A stretch of 33,649 nucleotides of DNA from Nanobdellota archaeon (GTDB lineage Archaea; Nanobdellota; Nanobdellia; Pacearchaeales; GW2011-AR1). Each line of letters opens with the position of its first letter. The stretch's first letter is position 1. A model generated the notes under the pieces. The model had not been told where the DNA came from. It searched no databases and saw nothing but the letters and a program-made list of their open reading frames with translations. The stretch covers positions 1-33,649 of the forward strand of contig DAHXOU010000045.1 of NCBI GenBank assembly GCA_027364705.1. The letters run 5' to 3'. The position numbers and the translations under genes are program-made. Of the stretch, positions 25,502-31,403 are shown one piece after another.

Positions 25502-25509
25502 AAATAATT

Positions 25510-25749
25510 TTATTTCTTCATGGGACATTTACCGCCACGGATACAAGCACAATAAGAATGAACATTTGCACAAATTCCGCCGAAGATAGCTATTAAACTC
25601 CAGAATAAAGGTTTTGTAAGTATTCCTATAAGCGTTGGTTCGCTTTTAGGAAGAAGATAAATTCCCATAGTAAATCCAAAACAACCAAGGATTATCAAAG
25701 CGTGTCCAAACAATGCTAATTTTTTATTTCCCATAATAAAACTAATCAT
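25510..25749 (-). CDS. Small two-TM protein with Cys-rich C-terminus
   Basis: Two hydrophobic helices then C..VH.YCAC.....CP. Confidence 0.6.
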   Translation of the reverse strand: MISFIMGNKKLALFGHALIILGCFGFTMGIYLLPKSEPTLIGILTKPLFWSLIAIFGGICANVHSYCACIRGGKCPMKK

Positions 25750-25816
25750 ATCTATTATTTAAATTTTTTTAAAACAATAATCATAAAAACTGTTGACTAT
25801 TTCTTTTTCTATGACA

Positions 25817-25877
25817 ATCAGCCCTGAGCACAAATTTAGTGGGAAATTCGAGCGGAAGAAACCGGAGGTGTCGTCGC
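25817..25877. repeat. Structured intergenic element, copy 1
   Basis: 47 of 63 aligned columns identical to 29037-29098 (manual alignment); shared hairpins. Confidence 0.75.
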
Positions 25878-26843
25878 ATGACTAAAAGAACTTACGAACC
25901 AAAACCATTATTTCTTGAAAGAATGAAAAAACTTCTCGGAAATGATTTTGAAAATTATATGAAAATTCTGAAAGAAGACCCAGTTCGTTCTTTTCGTTGC
26001 AATACAATAAAAATTTCTCCTACAGATTTGAAAAAACGTCTTGAAGATAAAGGATGGAAAATAAAAATTCCTTTCAAAGATTATCCTGAAATTATGATTG
26101 TTGAAAATAAACTCCAGCCAGGAGAGTTAGGAAGAAGTTTAGAACATTTGCTGGGATATTATTATATCCAGGAAATTGCGAGTATGCTTCCTGCTCTTGT
26201 TCTAAATCCAAAAAGCAATGAAAGAGTTTTAGATTTGTGCGCGTCGCCAGGAAGCAAAACAACTCAAATGGCGTCGATGATGAAAAATTCTGGATTGCTA
26301 ATCGCAAATGAAGTTAAAGTCGGAAGAATAAAAATTCTCGCAGCAAATATTGAAAGATGCGGAGTCATGAATATAATTATGACAAGAAGAGATGGAATTG
26401 CATTGTGCAGAAGATTCAAGGAAGAAAATTTTCTATTTGATAAAATTCTGCTTGATGCACCATGTTCAGGAGAAGGAACAATAAGAAGTACACCTTCAAC
26501 ACTTGAAATGTGGAATATAAAAACAATTGAAAATCTTTCGAAGTTACAGAAATCACTAATCGCTTCAGCAATAGAAATTCTCAAACCCAACGGAGAATTA
26601 GTTTATTCCACTTGCACTCACGCGCCAGAAGAAAATGAAGAAGTCTTGGATTTTGCATTAAAAAATTTTAAAGTCAAAGTTGAAAAAATATCTCTGCCAA
26701 TGAAAACAAATCAGGGAGTTACAAAATGGATGGAAAAAGAATATCTTGACGATGTAAAATATTCATGCAGAGTCTATCCCCACACAGCTGATACCGAGGG
26801 ATTTTACATTTCTAAAATTAAAAAGTTGAAAACCAAAAATTAA
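25878..26843 (+). CDS. RsmB/NOP2/Sun family RNA m5C methyltransferase
   Basis: YIQE..SM.P, DLCASPGSKT, DAPCSGEG, YSTCT..PEENE; GGAGGTG 7 nt before ATG 25878. Confidence 0.95.
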   Translation: MTKRTYEPKPLFLERMKKLLGNDFENYMKILKEDPVRSFRCNTIKISPTDLKKRLEDKGWKIKIPFKDYPEIMIVENKLQPGELGRSLEHLLGYYYIQEIASMLPALVLNPKSNERVLDLCASPGSKTTQMASMMKNSGLLIANEVKVGRIKILAANIERCGVMNIIMTRRDGIALCRRFKEENFLFDKILLDAPCSGEGTIRSTPSTLEMWNIKTIENLSKLQKSLIASAIEILKPNGELVYSTCTHAPEENEEVLDFALKNFKVKVEKISLPMKTNQGVTKWMEKEYLDDVKYSCRVYPHTADTEGFYISKIKKLKTKN

Positions 26844-26844
26844 A

Positions 26845-27453
26845 ATGAAAACAAAAATGGATTATCTGATTAAAGAACTAAAGGAACACTTACCATTCAC
26901 AACATTAGCAACAGTGATTTCAATGGCCTCGATTTTATTGTTATTAAAAATTAATTCAATAAATTCATTTGTTCCTTTTTTCTACGTATTTCACCCAGCA
27001 CACATACTTTTTTCGGCGATGGTTTCAAGCGCTATGTTTTATTATTACAAGAAAAATATTTTATTTTCAATACTGACAGGATTGTTCATCTCAATAATAA
27101 TCGGCTCAATCTCAGACGTATTATTTCCTTACTTAGGAAGTTCATTATTAGGAATACCTATCTCATTTCACCTTCCTGCAATAGAAAATCCAGGATTAAT
27201 TTTAGGAGTAGGATTAATCGGAGCAACTTTTGGTGCAATAATTAAAAAAACAAAATTCCCACATTTCATCCACGTTTTTATCTCGGTGTTTGCTTCACTG
27301 TTATACATCTTTGCATACTCAACAAATTTTTCATGGGTAAGTTTAATTCTTATCTTAATTATAACTTCAATATCCGTCGTAATTCCGTGCTGTTTGGGAG
27401 ATATAGTCCTGCCAAGATTATTTCAAAATAAAATAAAAAGGAAGACAAAATGA
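26845..27453 (+). CDS. Multi-pass membrane protein with intramembrane HxxH pairs and PCC.GD motif
   Basis: EHLPFT, FHPAH, SD, PHFIH, PCCLGD within about six TM segments. Confidence 0.8.
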   Translation: MKTKMDYLIKELKEHLPFTTLATVISMASILLLLKINSINSFVPFFYVFHPAHILFSAMVSSAMFYYYKKNILFSILTGLFISIIIGSISDVLFPYLGSSLLGIPISFHLPAIENPGLILGVGLIGATFGAIIKKTKFPHFIHVFISVFASLLYIFAYSTNFSWVSLILILIITSISVVIPCCLGDIVLPRLFQNKIKRKTK

Positions 27454-27944
27454 TTCCACTAAAATTTTTCAATAAACAGGAAAAGGAAAAATTCATAAAA
27501 AAATTGAATGAACAATTCGGGATAAAAGAAATTCCGTTTGAATTAGCAAAACTCGGAAAAGAAAGAATCATGGCATTTTCAGGAGAGCTTTCAGAAAAAG
27601 AAATTTTGGAACTTGACAGAATTGCAAGGATAGAAGGAATTGGAGTCTACTTTGCAAAAATCGACGAGAACACAAAAGAGATAAGACTAAGTATTGAAGG
27701 AGTACAATTAATGCAAGAACAAATAACAAAAAATATTTTCGAACTCGACGAGAAACAAGCAGAGCAATGGATGATGGGGCAGGAAATAAATATTACTACG
27801 GGAAAAAAAGGATTTTACATTATGAGATACAAAAATGATTTTTTAGGAACCGGAAAAATATCTATAGAAAAAATCAGCAACTTCATTCCAAAAAGCAGAA
27901 GATTAAAATACAAAGAAAATAAGATAGAAGAATTAAAGCAATAG
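27450..27944 (+). CDS. NIP7/UPF0113-like (RsmF C-terminal, PUA-like) protein
   Basis: L..QFGI, G.YFAK, RLSIEG.Q, ELD..QA..WM.G, D.LG.GK, NFIPK.RR; operonic with RsmB/NOP2 gene. Confidence 0.72.
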   Translation: MIPLKFFNKQEKEKFIKKLNEQFGIKEIPFELAKLGKERIMAFSGELSEKEILELDRIARIEGIGVYFAKIDENTKEIRLSIEGVQLMQEQITKNIFELDEKQAEQWMMGQEINITTGKKGFYIMRYKNDFLGTGKISIEKISNFIPKSRRLKYKENKIEELKQ

Positions 27945-27948
27945 TAAA

Positions 27949-28839
27949 ATGACACTCACATCAAGTCAAAAACAAAAAAGTATCAGGGCAGGAGAAATTG
28001 CTAAAGAAGTAAAAAAATGGATAAAACCCCAAATAAAAAAAGGAATGACTCTTTTAGAAATTGCAGAAAAGATTGAAGATAAAATAAGAGAACTAAAAGG
28101 GAAACCGGCTTTTCCAACAAACCTTTCAATAAATGAAATTGCTGCACATTACACTCCTTCTTACAGTGATGAAACAAAAGCAAATGGTTTATTAAAAGTA
28201 GATTTTGGAATTCACGTCGACGGCTGGATTGCAGACACAGCTTTTTCAGTTGATTTAGAAAACTCAGAAGAAAATAAAAAATTAATTGAAGCAAGCAAAG
28301 AAGCTTTGAAAAATGCAATTAAAGAAGTTGGAAAAAAAAGCTCACTTGGAGAAATTGGAAGAGTTATTCAAGAAACAATTGAATCTAAAAAATTTTCTCC
28401 GATAATAAATCTAACAGGACATCAGATGGAAGAGTATGAACTTCACGGAGAACAGACAATTCTAAATATAGAAAATTCAAGACAGGAAATTCTTGAAGAA
28501 GGTTTGTATGCAATTGAACCATTCGCAACAACAGGTTCTGGAAAAATTTACGAAGGAAAACAATCAGGAATTTATATTTTAATTAATGGAAAAAATGTCA
28601 GAAGCCCTGAAGCAAGAAAAGTTCTGGATTTTATCGGCGATGAATATCAGACTCTGCCATTCTGCTCAAGATGGATTGTAAAAAAATTTGGAACAAAATC
28701 CCTCTTCGCATTGAAACAATTAGAAGACAACGGAAATCTTCATCAATACCCGCAATTAGTTGAAGCATCTCACGCAAAAGTTTCACAAGCAGAAAACACA
28801 ATTCTCGTAGATGGCGGAGTTATTGTAACAACAGAATAA
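27949..28839 (+). CDS. map: Methionine aminopeptidase type II
   Basis: AFPTNLS.NE.AAHYTP, KVDFG.H.DG.IADTA, NLTGH, AIEPFAT, LPF..RW, SQAE.T. Confidence 0.97.
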   Translation: MTLTSSQKQKSIRAGEIAKEVKKWIKPQIKKGMTLLEIAEKIEDKIRELKGKPAFPTNLSINEIAAHYTPSYSDETKANGLLKVDFGIHVDGWIADTAFSVDLENSEENKKLIEASKEALKNAIKEVGKKSSLGEIGRVIQETIESKKFSPIINLTGHQMEEYELHGEQTILNIENSRQEILEEGLYAIEPFATTGSGKIYEGKQSGIYILINGKNVRSPEARKVLDFIGDEYQTLPFCSRWIVKKFGTKSLFALKQLEDNGNLHQYPQLVEASHAKVSQAENTILVDGGVIVTTE

Positions 28840-28841
28840 AA

Positions 28842-29030
28842 CTATATTCCGTATTTCTTTGAAACTTCAGATTCACAAGTAGGGCAACAACCATCACTAA
28901 TATTTTTGTAAAGATTCAAACTCAGCTCATAAAGTTCAGGGTCTTCTTTTTCAGACAACCATCTATCTTTATCGTCGATTAAAATACTTTTACAATAAGC
29001 ACATCTTGTTAATATTTTTTCAATTGTCAT
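28842..29030 (-). CDS. Small zinc-finger-like microprotein
   Basis: CAYCK...W...ISDGCCPTC, two CxxC pairs. Confidence 0.68.
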   Translation of the reverse strand: MTIEKILTRCAYCKSILIDDKDRWLSEKEDPELYELSLNLYKNISDGCCPTCESEVSKKYGI

Positions 29031-29036
29031 TTTTTT

Positions 29037-29099
29037 ATCAGGCGTGACCCAAATTTAAAGGGAAGGTTAAGCGAAGGAAACCGATTAGGTGTCCTCGCT
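29037..29099. repeat. Structured intergenic element, copy 2
   Basis: Homologous to 25817-25877; hairpin AGCG-A-AGGA-A-ACC-GATTA-GGT-G-TCCT-CGCT. Confidence 0.75.
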
Positions 29100-31403
29100 C
29101 TATCCTAAATAACTATTATCCATAGGAATTGCTGCTTTAGCAGATTTCAGATAAGTTTCTTCAATTTTTTTGTATAAATCAATAGTTGACTTTGTAACAC
29201 TTGGTTTTATTTTTTTCAGCGCTTCTTCAAAATGTTTTTTCTTTACTTGTTTGGAATTAATATCTTCTCTCAATGCAAAATAAGCTGCTTCTCTTGCAAC
29301 TGCTTCCAAATCAGCACCAGTATATCCGCTTGTATCTTTTGCTATTTCTTTCAAATCAACATCTTTTGCAAGAGGCATTTTCTTAGTGTGAATTCCCAAG
29401 ATATTCAGTCTTCCGTCGTCTTCTGGAGCATTTACTAAAAGTATTTTATCAAATCTTCCAGGCCTTAATAATGCAGTGTCCAACATATCAGGACGATTAG
29501 TTGCTCCGATAACAATAACATCATTCAAATCTTCAAGCCCATCCATCTCAGCAAGCATTTGATTCAAAACTCTTTCAGTAACTTTAGTTCCTGTTTCCAT
29601 TCCTCTCCGTCCTGCAAGTGAATCAATCTCGTCGAAGAAAACAACGCAAGGTGCAACTTGTCGAGCTCTCTCGAAAATTTTTCTCATTCCTTCTTCAGAT
29701 TTACCAACCCACATACTCAATAATGAAGGTCCTTTAACTTGAATAAAATTAGCTTCTGATTCTTTAGCAACTGCTTTAGCCAAAAGAGTTTTACCTGTTC
29801 CAGGAGGCCCGTAAAGTAAAATACCTCTCGAAGGTCTTATTCCCATTCTCTCAAAACTATCAGCATATTTCATCGGCCATTCAACTGCTTCTTTCAATTC
29901 TTGTTTAACACTATCTAATCCTCCGACGCTATTCCATTCAACATTTGGAGTTTCAACTAAAACTTCTCTCATTGCACTTGGTCTGACTGTCTTTAATGCA
30001 TCAACAAAATCTTCATGATTGACAATTAATTTTTCAAGAATTTCAGCAGGTATCTTTTCTTCTCCTTCAAGTTTCATTTGAGGAAGAATTTTTCTCAAAA
30101 CAATAATCGCAGCTTCTTTAGTTAAAGATTCTAAATCAGCACCAACAAAACCATGAGTCAGAGAAGCAATCTCGTCGAGATTTACTTTCTTATCCATCGG
30201 CATGTTTCTTGTGTGAATTTTCAAAACCTGAAGTCTTCCTCCTTTTCCTGGAACACCAACTTCAAGTTCTCTGTCAAATCGTCCTGGTCTTCTCAAAGCA
30301 GCGTCGAGAGCATTGGGTCTGTTAGTTGCACCAATTACAACAACCTTTCCTCTACTTTTCAGACCATCCATCATAGTCAGCAACTGTGAAACAACTCTCC
30401 TCTCAACTTCTCCCTGAACATCTTCTCTCTTAGGAGCAATAGCATCAATCTCGTCGATAAAAATAATCGCAGGAGCAGTCTTCTCAGCTTCTTCAAAAAT
30501 ATCTCTTATCTTTTTTTCAGACTCTCCGTAAAACTTCGACATAATTTCTGGGCCATTAAGTAAAATAAAATTTGCCTCCGATTCATTTGCAACTGCTTTA
30601 GCCAAAAGAGTTTTACCAGTTCCAGGAGGTCCGTGAAGTAAAATTCCTTTTGGAGGTTCAATTCCCAATCTCTCAAAAATCTCTGGATGTTTTAATGGGA
30701 TTTCGACAAGCTCTCTGATTTTTTTAATTTCATCAGTTAAACCACCTATATCTTCATAAGTAATCTCAGGAATTTTCTCGTCGGAAAGTTCAACTGCTTT
30801 TGAATTTAAAGTAACTTCGGTATTTTCAGAAATGTAAACCGGCTGAGAAGGATTTGTGCTGATAACGACAAATTTAATCTGAGTTATTCCTCCACCGAGA
30901 TTTCCAAAACCCATTCCTCCAAAAAGTTCTCCTAAATTTCCGAATATATCATCCATATCACCAAACTCTTCAGACATCAAATCTCTTCTCCTTTGAACTC
31001 CACCAAGAACAACAATGTCTCCTTTCAAAACTGCTCTACCAAGAAGTCCTCTTCGCAAATTGTCAGAATCTGCTTGAATCATAATTCCTTTTTGTGCAGG
31101 AGCAATTACAATTTTTTTAGCTTCCTTAACTTCTGCTTTGCTAATTGTTACTAAATCTCCAATTCCTGTTCTTGCATTTTTTCTAAGAATACCGTCGATT
31201 CTGATAATTCCTTCACCAAGATCTGCAGGGTAAGCTCTGTCAACGATTGCAATAGTCTCTCTGTTTCCTTTAATGATTATTCTGTCTCCTCTTCGCAAAT
31301 CTAATTGTCGCATTATTTCAGAATCTATTCTTGCAATTCCTTTATACGCATCGTCCTGCATTGCTTCGACGACCTTAAGTTGAATTTGTTTTTCTTTTGC
31401 CAT
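29100..31403 (-). CDS. cdc48: Cdc48/VAT AAA+ ATPase
   Basis: N domain, two GPPGTGKT Walker A, IDEID/FDEID Walker B, two ALxRPGRFD motifs. Confidence 0.98.

Follow-up and report, generated by a model that had tools for sequence, protein, structure and literature searches.

The window considered here, that is, the whole analysed stretch of 33,649 nucleotides (nt) of contig DAHXOU010000045.1 from a Nanobdellota archaeon (assembly GCA_027364705.1), carries two copies of a structured element of approximately 62 nt, both read on the plus strand: copy 1 at 25817–25877, between AT-rich upstream DNA and the start codon of an RsmB/F-NOP2 methyltransferase gene, and copy 2 at 29037–29098, beside the stop codon of the minus-strand cdc48 gene. 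The two stretches are members of a dispersed repeat family and not a two-copy RNA gene. The family is probably a non-autonomous selfish repeat of Pacearchaeota-type DPANN archaea, which inserts strand-specifically and has sometimes been co-opted as a 5′ leader. With regard to known systems, it is a new and unusually polar variant of the small structured repeats known from bacteria, here residing in DPANN archaea. In the genus to which the window belongs the full unit of approximately 62 nt is composed of a 5′ module and a 3′ module of approximately 38 nt.

A dispersed repeat family

The initial annotation had aligned the two stretches by hand at 47 of 63 columns, and the same figure is obtained in the MAFFT alignment of the repeat family. 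Their local alignment score is 43, a value reached by none of 5000 shuffles (mean 12.5, standard deviation 2.2, maximum 26), and so the homology also stands against shuffled DNA. A hidden Markov model (HMM) built only from five copies residing on other contigs recovered exactly 29037–29098 (E 5.5e-22) and 25817–25877 (E 4.3e-9), with no third match at E < 1 anywhere in the 33.6-kb window. The GC contents of the window copies are 0.43 and 0.37–0.38, compared to approximately 0.30 around them. That these are the only GC-rich stretches of the area holds for intergenic DNA, but some nearby coding DNA reaches 0.40–0.44.

The genome of the window (G000; G001 onward are our labels for its relatives, C stands for contig and L for locus) is available as an assembly of 628 kb in 49 contigs, with 32% GC and a completeness of 89.6%. 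It was searched with regular expressions, with nhmmer and with a covariance model of 12 base pairs (R1) built from seven copies. Seven full-length copies were recovered, on C1 (two), C2, C8, C16, C29 and C32, together with two variants, namely a truncated copy beside a tRNA-Gly gene on C12 and a long form on C29 with an insert of approximately 56 nt; three more matches are weak (E 0.06–0.11). Mean column identity among the seven copies is 90%, and the likeness runs along their full length. Of 60 related genomes 24 had matches to R1, 12 of them being among the 16 of the same genus; there were 60 matches in G003, 31 in G008, 28 in G014, 21 in G004 and none in G005, G006, G012 and G015. Outside the family-level group only three of 24 genomes had any. 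The initial annotation had named a REP/MITE-like dispersed repeat as one possibility, and this has been borne out by the further copies in the genome and its relatives, by copy numbers of 0 to 60 per same-genus genome and by the empty orthologous sites described below.

When 185,579 species genomes were scanned for an exact 23-nt motif, 62 loci were found in about 40 metagenome-assembled genomes (MAGs), the record titles of which read Pacearchaeota, Woesearchaeota, Nanoarchaeota or Nanoarchaeia. Two contigs bearing the module (L246, L274) are filed as MAGs of bacteria of the candidate phyla radiation (Patescibacteria, Saccharibacteria); since one of them carries an archaeal-type intron-bearing tRNA, they are probably mis-binned. 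Among viral contigs a strict pattern gave no matches, and a loose pattern gave at least 117 stretches, none of the 80 scored being convincing (the best three reached 18–22 bits). Rfam was searched both at gathering thresholds and at E up to 10 without any match to the element, which agrees with the earlier remark that it could not be recognised as a known family.

In G003 the units also form head-to-tail arrays of two or three, with a period of 62 nt and no spacer (C4:10840–11060, 29000–29150 and 114270–114420; C9:22820–23010), and adjoining units are often identical. On C8 of the window genome (10514–10600; L005), GTGTCGTCGCAT stands 14 nt beyond a full copy and resembles what is left of the 3′ end of an older copy, of the variant represented by copy 1; the same tail is met as a loose end in contigs assembled from DNA sequencing runs.

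Structure of the unit

The 5′ module consists of ATCAG, a 2-bp helix around a CNUGA loop and an A/T-rich stretch, while the 3′ module is made up of the single-stranded word GGGAAGRTTAA and a 10-bp hairpin. Copy 1 is of a 'leader-type' variant with a GGA loop in the hairpin. Its helix 1 occupies 25821–25829 (pairs G25821–C25829 and C25822–G25828, 5-nt loop CCUGA), and its 3′ module lies at 25841–25877, with GGGAAATTCGA preceding the hairpin (25852–25877). Copy 2 has the typical form with a GATTA loop. Here helix 1 is found at 29041–29049 (pairs G29041–C29049 and G29042–C29048, loop CGUGA), and the 3′ module, which is the part kept across genera, at 29060–29098, where GGGAAGGTTAA is followed by the hairpin (29071–29098). 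In other genera the 5′ parts are unrelated or contain a different 5′ hairpin, GCGATTTCC..GGAGGCA..GAAATCGC. No inverted repeat is formed by the two ends of the element (ATCAG... and ...CTCGC), and the flanks at both ends are A/T-rich and not constant.

Among the copies, which were picked by the model and by motif patterns, the top of the hairpin is near-invariant (GAAACC, loop, GGTGTC, with an A–G mismatch), and the few departures from it (such as GGTTTC and GGTGTT) leave pairing intact or re-establish it. The loop is variable (GATTA, GATAA, GGA, GTA, GCA, TT and others), and the base of the hairpin covaries freely across the family, up to swaps of the whole stem in copies of G014 and G003 (GCGAAGGA/TCCTCGC, TGTCAAGA/TCTTACA, CAAAAGA/TCTTTTG, GATAAAGA/TCTTTAT). 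On the model, 97.4% of the cells of 85 matches (75 distinct) are paired and seven of the 12 pairs have changed on both sides, values that understate the variation because the set was partly chosen by a pattern that fixes the 5′ strand. None of 500 shuffles reached the observed values, and pairing falls to 35–53% when the 3′ partners are slid by one to three columns. Helix 1 covaries as well, both at pair 5/13 (GC 39, AU 9, GU 3, CG 2) and at pair 6/12 (CG 22, GC 12, UA 9, AU 2). Of the pairings in the initial annotation, covariation backs the terminal stem and the small helix near the 5′ end; that of CAC/GTG versus CCC/GGG, placed around AAATTTA, does not hold in other copies.

The G–U pairs occur on the plus strand and would become A–C if the minus strand were read. 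The more stable fold is that of the plus strand in 81 of 111 distinct hairpins and of the minus strand in 25, the differences between strands being small; G–U pairs and fold stability together favour the plus strand. For the two window copies the plus-strand fold z-scores, +0.51 and −1.34, do not stand out.

On its 3′ strand, 7 nt from the end of the element, the hairpin carries a Shine-Dalgarno sequence, AGGTG. In copy 1 this is extended to GGAGGTG (25864–25870), within the loop and the 3′ strand, and the ATG at 25878 follows 7 nt on. Both words match the 3′ tail of the 16S rRNA, GATCACCTCCT (its end is also read as GGATCACCTCCT), as taken from G014 of the same genus, the window assembly being devoid of 16S rRNA. 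Extended pairing of GGGAAGGTTAA with this tail was sought and none was found.

Several other readings of the unit were rejected. By eye and against consensus sequences, a K-turn does not fit, the non-bulged strand having no GA; an integron attC-like site does not fit, as GTTAAGC is lost in variants; and a TATA box does not fit, as AAATTTAAA changes to ATTGCAAAG or ACTCAAG. A coding role was dismissed as well: although two frames of the unit are open, the subtypes differ in length by 1 nt, which shifts the frame.

Sites that are empty in relatives

Both window copies are lineage-specific insertions. At the cdc48 3′ junction, all 14 orthologous loci compared in the genus lack the repeat. In G014 and G015 this junction reads stop TAA, 0–1 nt, then the ATG of a small open reading frame (ORF), whereas in the window the stop is TAG (29100–29102), and 69 nt separate it from the ATG of the small ORF. 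Comparison of the empty and filled sites reveals no duplication beyond 1–2 A/T bases. All four typical copies of the window genome whose 3′ end meets a convergent gene meet TAG, the G of which matches the last bases of the element. Since TAG ends only 64 of the 641 long ORFs of G014, it appears that the element supplies the G of these stop codons.

Likewise, all 15 same-genus genomes compared lack the repeat 5′ of NOP2, and in G009, G014, G015, G013 and G010 polB is directly followed by NOP2. In the window approximately 376 extra nt (25502–25877) lie between the two genes, comprising a 79-amino-acid ORF on the minus strand and copy 1, the last base of which directly precedes the NOP2 ATG. The coordinates thus agree with the earlier placement of copy 1 at the NOP2 ATG and of copy 2 at the cdc48 stop, with 1 nt between in the latter case. 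Split BLAST matches in NOP2 of G003, G004 and G008 are caused by unrelated low-complexity inserts and not by the repeat. These genes (L324, L320 and L323, respectively) have an in-frame insert of 73–166 nt after ..EIMIVEGK.

The initial annotation had also pointed to small Cys-rich minus-strand ORFs next to both copies. They do exist, with five Cys each: the 79-amino-acid ORF at 25510–25749, without a Pfam match, and a 62-amino-acid ORF at 28842–29030, which starts 6 nt from the 5′ end of copy 2. Their link to the repeat, however, is incidental, as in relatives the small ORF abuts the cdc48 stop without any repeat. For the 79-amino-acid ORF, tblastn searches of G000, G014 and G007 gave no further copy.

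A third locus is offered by the gene for a 581-amino-acid protein that neighbours the long copy on C29. Of 17 genomes, 15 lack the module 5′ of this gene; G000 and G001 have it, in different forms. In both cases the module lies between a conserved promoter-like ATTAATAAAT box and the ATG, where it must be transcribed as a 5′ leader. The box, (A/G)ATTAATAAAT(T/A)A, is present in most same-genus genomes (L366–L382), approximately 20–45 nt before the ATG where the repeat is absent, and is probably the TATA/BRE (B recognition element) promoter signature of the genus.

Orientation along the chromosome

The copies are strikingly polar. On the 623-kb contig C3 of G014 nhmmer gave 28 matches, spread from 90 to 590 kb and all of them on the minus strand. 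The remaining stretch of approximately 123 kb (590.7–623.1 kb and 0–90.4 kb) is free of repeats, where about seven copies would be expected. The long ORFs of G014 number 381 on the plus and 260 on the minus strand, and the genes beside the copies point in every combination. In G003, on contigs with two or more matches, 45 of 48 agree with the majority of their contig. In G007 all six matches on C1 are on the plus strand, and there is one switch of orientation inside each of C2 and C4. In G014, G007 and G000 taken together, 38 of 44 elements run against the GC skew of their surroundings (10 kb to either side), but no more than 29 of the 44 run against the strand that carries most of the nearby genes. 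All these counts are of events that are not independent, on MAG contigs that can be mis-joined. Co-orientation on the scale of a chromosome points to a strand-specific step.

Insertion contexts and alternative explanations

At 24 of the 62 exact-motif loci the hairpin is followed by the ATG of an ORF of at least 50 codons, at +0 (14 loci), +1 (nine) or +3 (one). Judging by eye from the N-termini, the downstream genes include those for L11 (twice), L37Ae, L39e, S3Ae, an EF-2-like protein, PheRS beta (three times) and an SMC-like protein. TATA-like AT-rich boxes, also read by eye, lie 20–30 nt 5′ of many module starts. In three further cases (G014 at 173828 and 466647; L260) the module stands directly before position +1 of a tRNA. 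The notion of leaderless tRNAs for want of RNase P was ruled out, RNase P RNA having been found in four of four genomes tested.

Such positions would fit a functional cis-acting RNA, that is, a portable 5′ leader (a translation operator, or a hairpin protecting the 5′ end and bringing a ribosome-binding site) for highly expressed genes and pre-tRNAs, the extra copies in the window's genus being decayed or redundant leaders. We give this explanation a small but real chance. Apart from the ribosomal protein, EF-2-like and PheRS genes and the three tRNAs just mentioned, it can draw on the Shine-Dalgarno word that matches the 16S tail, on the covariation that maintains the hairpin, on the greater stability of the plus-strand fold and on the 581-amino-acid gene, which carries the module in both G000 and G001; given the TATA-like boxes, we read the module as possibly constituting a whole 5′ untranslated region. 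The module is, however, not kept at orthologues: sense copies, which a conserved cis-regulatory leader or riboswitch would be expected to retain 5′ of orthologous genes, were found at 0 of 15 NOP2 loci and 2 of 17 loci of the 581-amino-acid gene. Four same-genus genomes do without any copy. Many copies, copy 2 included, are antisense to both neighbours and leave no room for a gene downstream of them before the convergent one, others are antisense within tRNA introns, and some are translated within ORFs. Nor does the unremarkable folding of the window copies speak for a leader, and all 28 copies of G014 reside on the gene-poorer strand (260 versus 381 ORFs).

Residence inside genes raises another possibility. 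The Rfam tRNA model spans the element within the long introns of four tRNAs, in sense (L253, L266) as well as in antisense (L020, L226), and further cases are visible by eye only. Next to tRNAs, the copies are accompanied by direct duplications of 11–15 nt of the tRNA end, part of which also recurs internally in inverted form (the tRNA-Gly of C12, L217, L248, L262). In the window genome (C12:13268–13402; L009:969–1103) a 59-nt insertion stands after tRNA-Gly(CCC); it begins with an inverted copy of six of the last 11 bases of the tRNA, ends in the 3′ module and precedes a direct repeat of these 11 nt; a similar layout is present at the tRNA 5′ ends in L217, L248 and L262. At three of the 62 loci (L218, L230, L223), none of them in the window genome, the module is read in frame as GRLSEGNRRCPR inside ORFs. 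It interrupts a TRM5/TYW2-type domain (in two MAGs) and an Eco57I/HemK-type methyltransferase just 5′ of the FDVIVMP / YDLIIFNPPY strand (NPPY in the Eco57I/HemK type), and in L218 and L223 approximately 20 amino acids more are contributed by a second 5′ module.

A mobile intervening sequence acting at the RNA level, similar to bulge-helix-bulge introns and excised by the tRNA splicing endonuclease, could sit in tRNAs, leaders and ORFs alike. It would be in keeping with the element's presence in the introns of at least four tRNAs and inside two methyltransferase ORFs, and with the extra stem that the duplicated tRNA end and its inverted copy form around the tRNA-adjacent copies. We nevertheless hold it to be improbable. 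Two of the intron copies are sense and two antisense; all three ORF insertions are a multiple of 3 nt in length, contain no stop and share one reading frame, none of which would be needed for splicing; end-to-end pairing of the 62-nt unit that would form the motif was not found by eye, without a formal search; and co-orientation along the chromosome irrespective of gene direction is a property of DNA.

C/D box small RNAs have a C box, RUGAUGA, near the 5′ end, a D box, CUGA, near the 3′ end and a K-turn. That the family consists of small trans-acting RNA genes, among them the minus-strand K-turn or C/D-like RNA offered as an alternative in the initial annotation, is very improbable: compact size (approximately 60 nt), conserved structure, raised GC in an AT-rich genome and the terminal CUGA of the minus strand fit it, but that strand starts with GCGACGA or GCGAGGA and not with the consensus RUGAUGA, there are no C′/D′ boxes and, because the copies are alike over their whole length, no variable guides, the G–U pairs favour the opposite strand, Rfam gives no match, no promoter is conserved at a fixed distance, copies abut coding sequence on both sides, and copy numbers of 0–60 and spacer-free tandem arrays would be odd for such genes.

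A probable selfish repeat and its possible mode of insertion

The reading of the repeat as selfish, non-autonomous DNA is supported by its patchy copy number, the empty orthologous sites, the occurrence in either orientation to host genes, the residence in introns and ORFs and the tandem arrays. The single-stranded word and the mismatched top of the stem are fixed, the stem base covaries and the loop is free, as would be expected of a hairpin that is read by a protein, and we infer that the hairpin serves as the recognition structure of a trans-acting enzyme. Either insertion or survival would be strand-specific, and the simplest candidate for this step is insertion into single-stranded DNA at the replication fork, as in IS200/IS605-type elements. 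As the Shine-Dalgarno word stands 7 nt from the element end, an insertion right before a start codon would supply a ribosome-binding site and might be tolerated or co-opted. Copy 1 would be such a leader for NOP2. Copy 2 would be a neutral insertion into the 0–1-nt spacer between cdc48 and the small ORF, in which the last bases of the element changed the stop from TAA to TAG.

A number of observations weigh against this reading. The initial annotation had suggested an IS200/RAYT-type tyrosine transposase as a partner to be looked for, but no mobilising enzyme was found: the Y1/HUH transposase domain PF01797 is found in only two of 17 same-genus genomes (G008 and G010) and is absent from G000, G003 and G014. 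A TnpB-type domain above the Pfam cut-off is present only in G015, a genome without copies, and reverse transcriptase in two of 17 genomes, so that none of the three tracks repeat copy number. The same-genus genomes are 75–92% complete, and an enzyme could thus have been missed. In addition, the repeat has neither terminal inverted repeats nor a constant target duplication nor a fixed target word. No sign of recent movement was seen, the contigs of three DNA runs (one study, at most two samples) being without the empty-site form and showing only breaks at the repeat and loose ends into other copies. No RNA sequencing run was found to contain the window stretch. The spacing of the Shine-Dalgarno word cannot explain why the 3′ end of the element is placed exactly before tRNA +1. 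The 38-nt module is near-identical across many MAGs and, in different ones, stands before the same genes (PheRS beta three times, L11 twice), which could reflect selection for function. The link to replication is weak, too: in G003 the orientation opposes local skew in only 30 of 50 cases, the plus-strand GC skew of G014:C3 is positive in almost every 40-kb bin with no clear switch, and in both G014 (near 100 kb) and G007 the single orc1/cdc6 gene is surrounded by copies of one orientation.

The IS200-type Y1 genes themselves (L073–L076) number three in G008, one of them with an internal stop, and one in G010. They are not flanked by the repeat: at E < 0.1 there are three matches in L073 (G008:C77), all on one side, downstream, and none in L074–L076. 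Two leader-type copies lie approximately 0.8–1.3 kb downstream of one Y1 gene, on the opposite strand.

A bolder version of the proposal would be that of a new archaeal mobile element without a recognisable transposase, the hairpin top being read by a strand-specific process coupled to the fork, so that the copies record fork direction. We see only a slim chance for it. If it were true, the 28 of 28 copies over 500 kb of the 623-kb contig would mean that the chromosome is replicated almost entirely one way, the orientation of the elements would serve as a ready-made replication map for uncultivated archaea, and their exact placement at tRNA +1 and start codons would point to insertion guided by the boundaries of functional units, beyond selection alone.

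Comparison with known repeats

We found no description of the repeat family in the literature searched. A MITE (miniature inverted-repeat transposable element) census, in which the repeat may be included, reports 105 MITEs per Mb in 'a Woesearchaea genome' (PMC11602168).

In its behaviour the repeat is most closely analogous to the Rickettsia palindromic elements (RPEs). In-frame insertions of RPEs in protein-coding genes are described in a review (PMC10969869). Both are short hairpin repeats of reduced genomes, located in intergenic DNA, in RNA genes and, adding a peptide, in frame in ORFs, and a transposase is known for neither. As in RPEs, intergenic, tRNA-intron and in-frame ORF copies are all present, the likeness being one of behaviour and not of homology. 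The differences lie in the domain of life, in length (approximately 100–150 bp for RPEs versus approximately 38–62 nt for the present unit) and in the share of copies inside ORFs, here only 3 of 62 loci. Neither co-orientation along a whole chromosome nor an end bearing a Shine-Dalgarno sequence is known for RPEs.

REP (repetitive extragenic palindromic) sequences and REPINs, which RAYT (Y1 HUH) transposases mobilise, resemble the family in their unit of approximately 35–40 nt, in the combination of a conserved single-stranded word with an imperfect hairpin and in being extragenic, multi-copy and vertically persistent. The REP palindrome is preceded by a GTAG or CGTC tetranucleotide tag (PMC3733652), whereas the 5′ word of this family, GGGAAGRTTAA, contains neither. 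In place of inverted doublets there are co-oriented copies and head-to-tail arrays, and a RAYT/Y1 gene was not found in 15 of 17 same-genus genomes, that of the window included, at the completeness given above.

Non-autonomous IS200/IS605 elements (PATE-like, with the mechanism of IS608 and ISDra2) resemble the family in the hairpins, the strand bias and the lack of terminal inverted repeats and of a constant duplication. The hairpins of REP/RAYT and IS200/IS605 ends are read by protein, and a pronounced preference for one strand, in line with insertion into the lagging-strand template, is described for IS200/IS605-type elements (PMC6006769). Unlike these elements, the family has no fixed tetra- or pentanucleotide target at one end, only its 3′ hairpin is constant (at the 5′ end there is a 2-bp helix) while the 5′ part is exchangeable, its tRNA-adjacent copies have duplications of 11–15 nt, a TnpA gene was not found, and the polarity does not switch at orc1.

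Correia, ERIC and similar MITEs enter transcripts when inserted and can donate expression signals. The insert of the present family similarly supplies a Shine-Dalgarno sequence at the right distance. MITEs, however, have terminal inverted repeats and fixed duplications generated via DDE transposases, and this family has neither.

Genes around the window copies

Directly 3′ of copy 1 lies the RsmB/F-NOP2 methyltransferase gene (25878–26843, plus strand; Pfam PF01189, E 9.4e-54). A GTG-extended NOP2 frame (25839–26843) is a spurious ORF created by the repeat. The window encodes a protein with a PUA-like domain separately from NOP2 (27450–27944; PF13636), with an ORF for 202 amino acids and no Pfam match in between (26845–27453). 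In G014 a long variant of the repeat is found just 5′ of the PUA-domain gene instead. The CDC48 AAA ATPase gene, antisense to copy 2, occupies 29100–31403 of the minus strand.

Implications

DPANN genomes are among the smallest and most compact cellular ones. Selfish repeats are unexpected there, yet the family reaches 60 copies in about 0.7 Mb. By invading tRNA introns and protein genes, altering stop codons and donating ribosome-binding sites, it acts as a real force in genome change. For annotation, the family is worth masking, as it yields spurious ORFs, could pass for a regulatory RNA and is a source of contig breaks in MAGs. Finally, the near-perfect co-orientation of the copies, with no visible transposase, poses a testable question: which strand-specific process places or keeps these hairpins, and may they serve as reporters of replication direction in organisms that resist cultivation?

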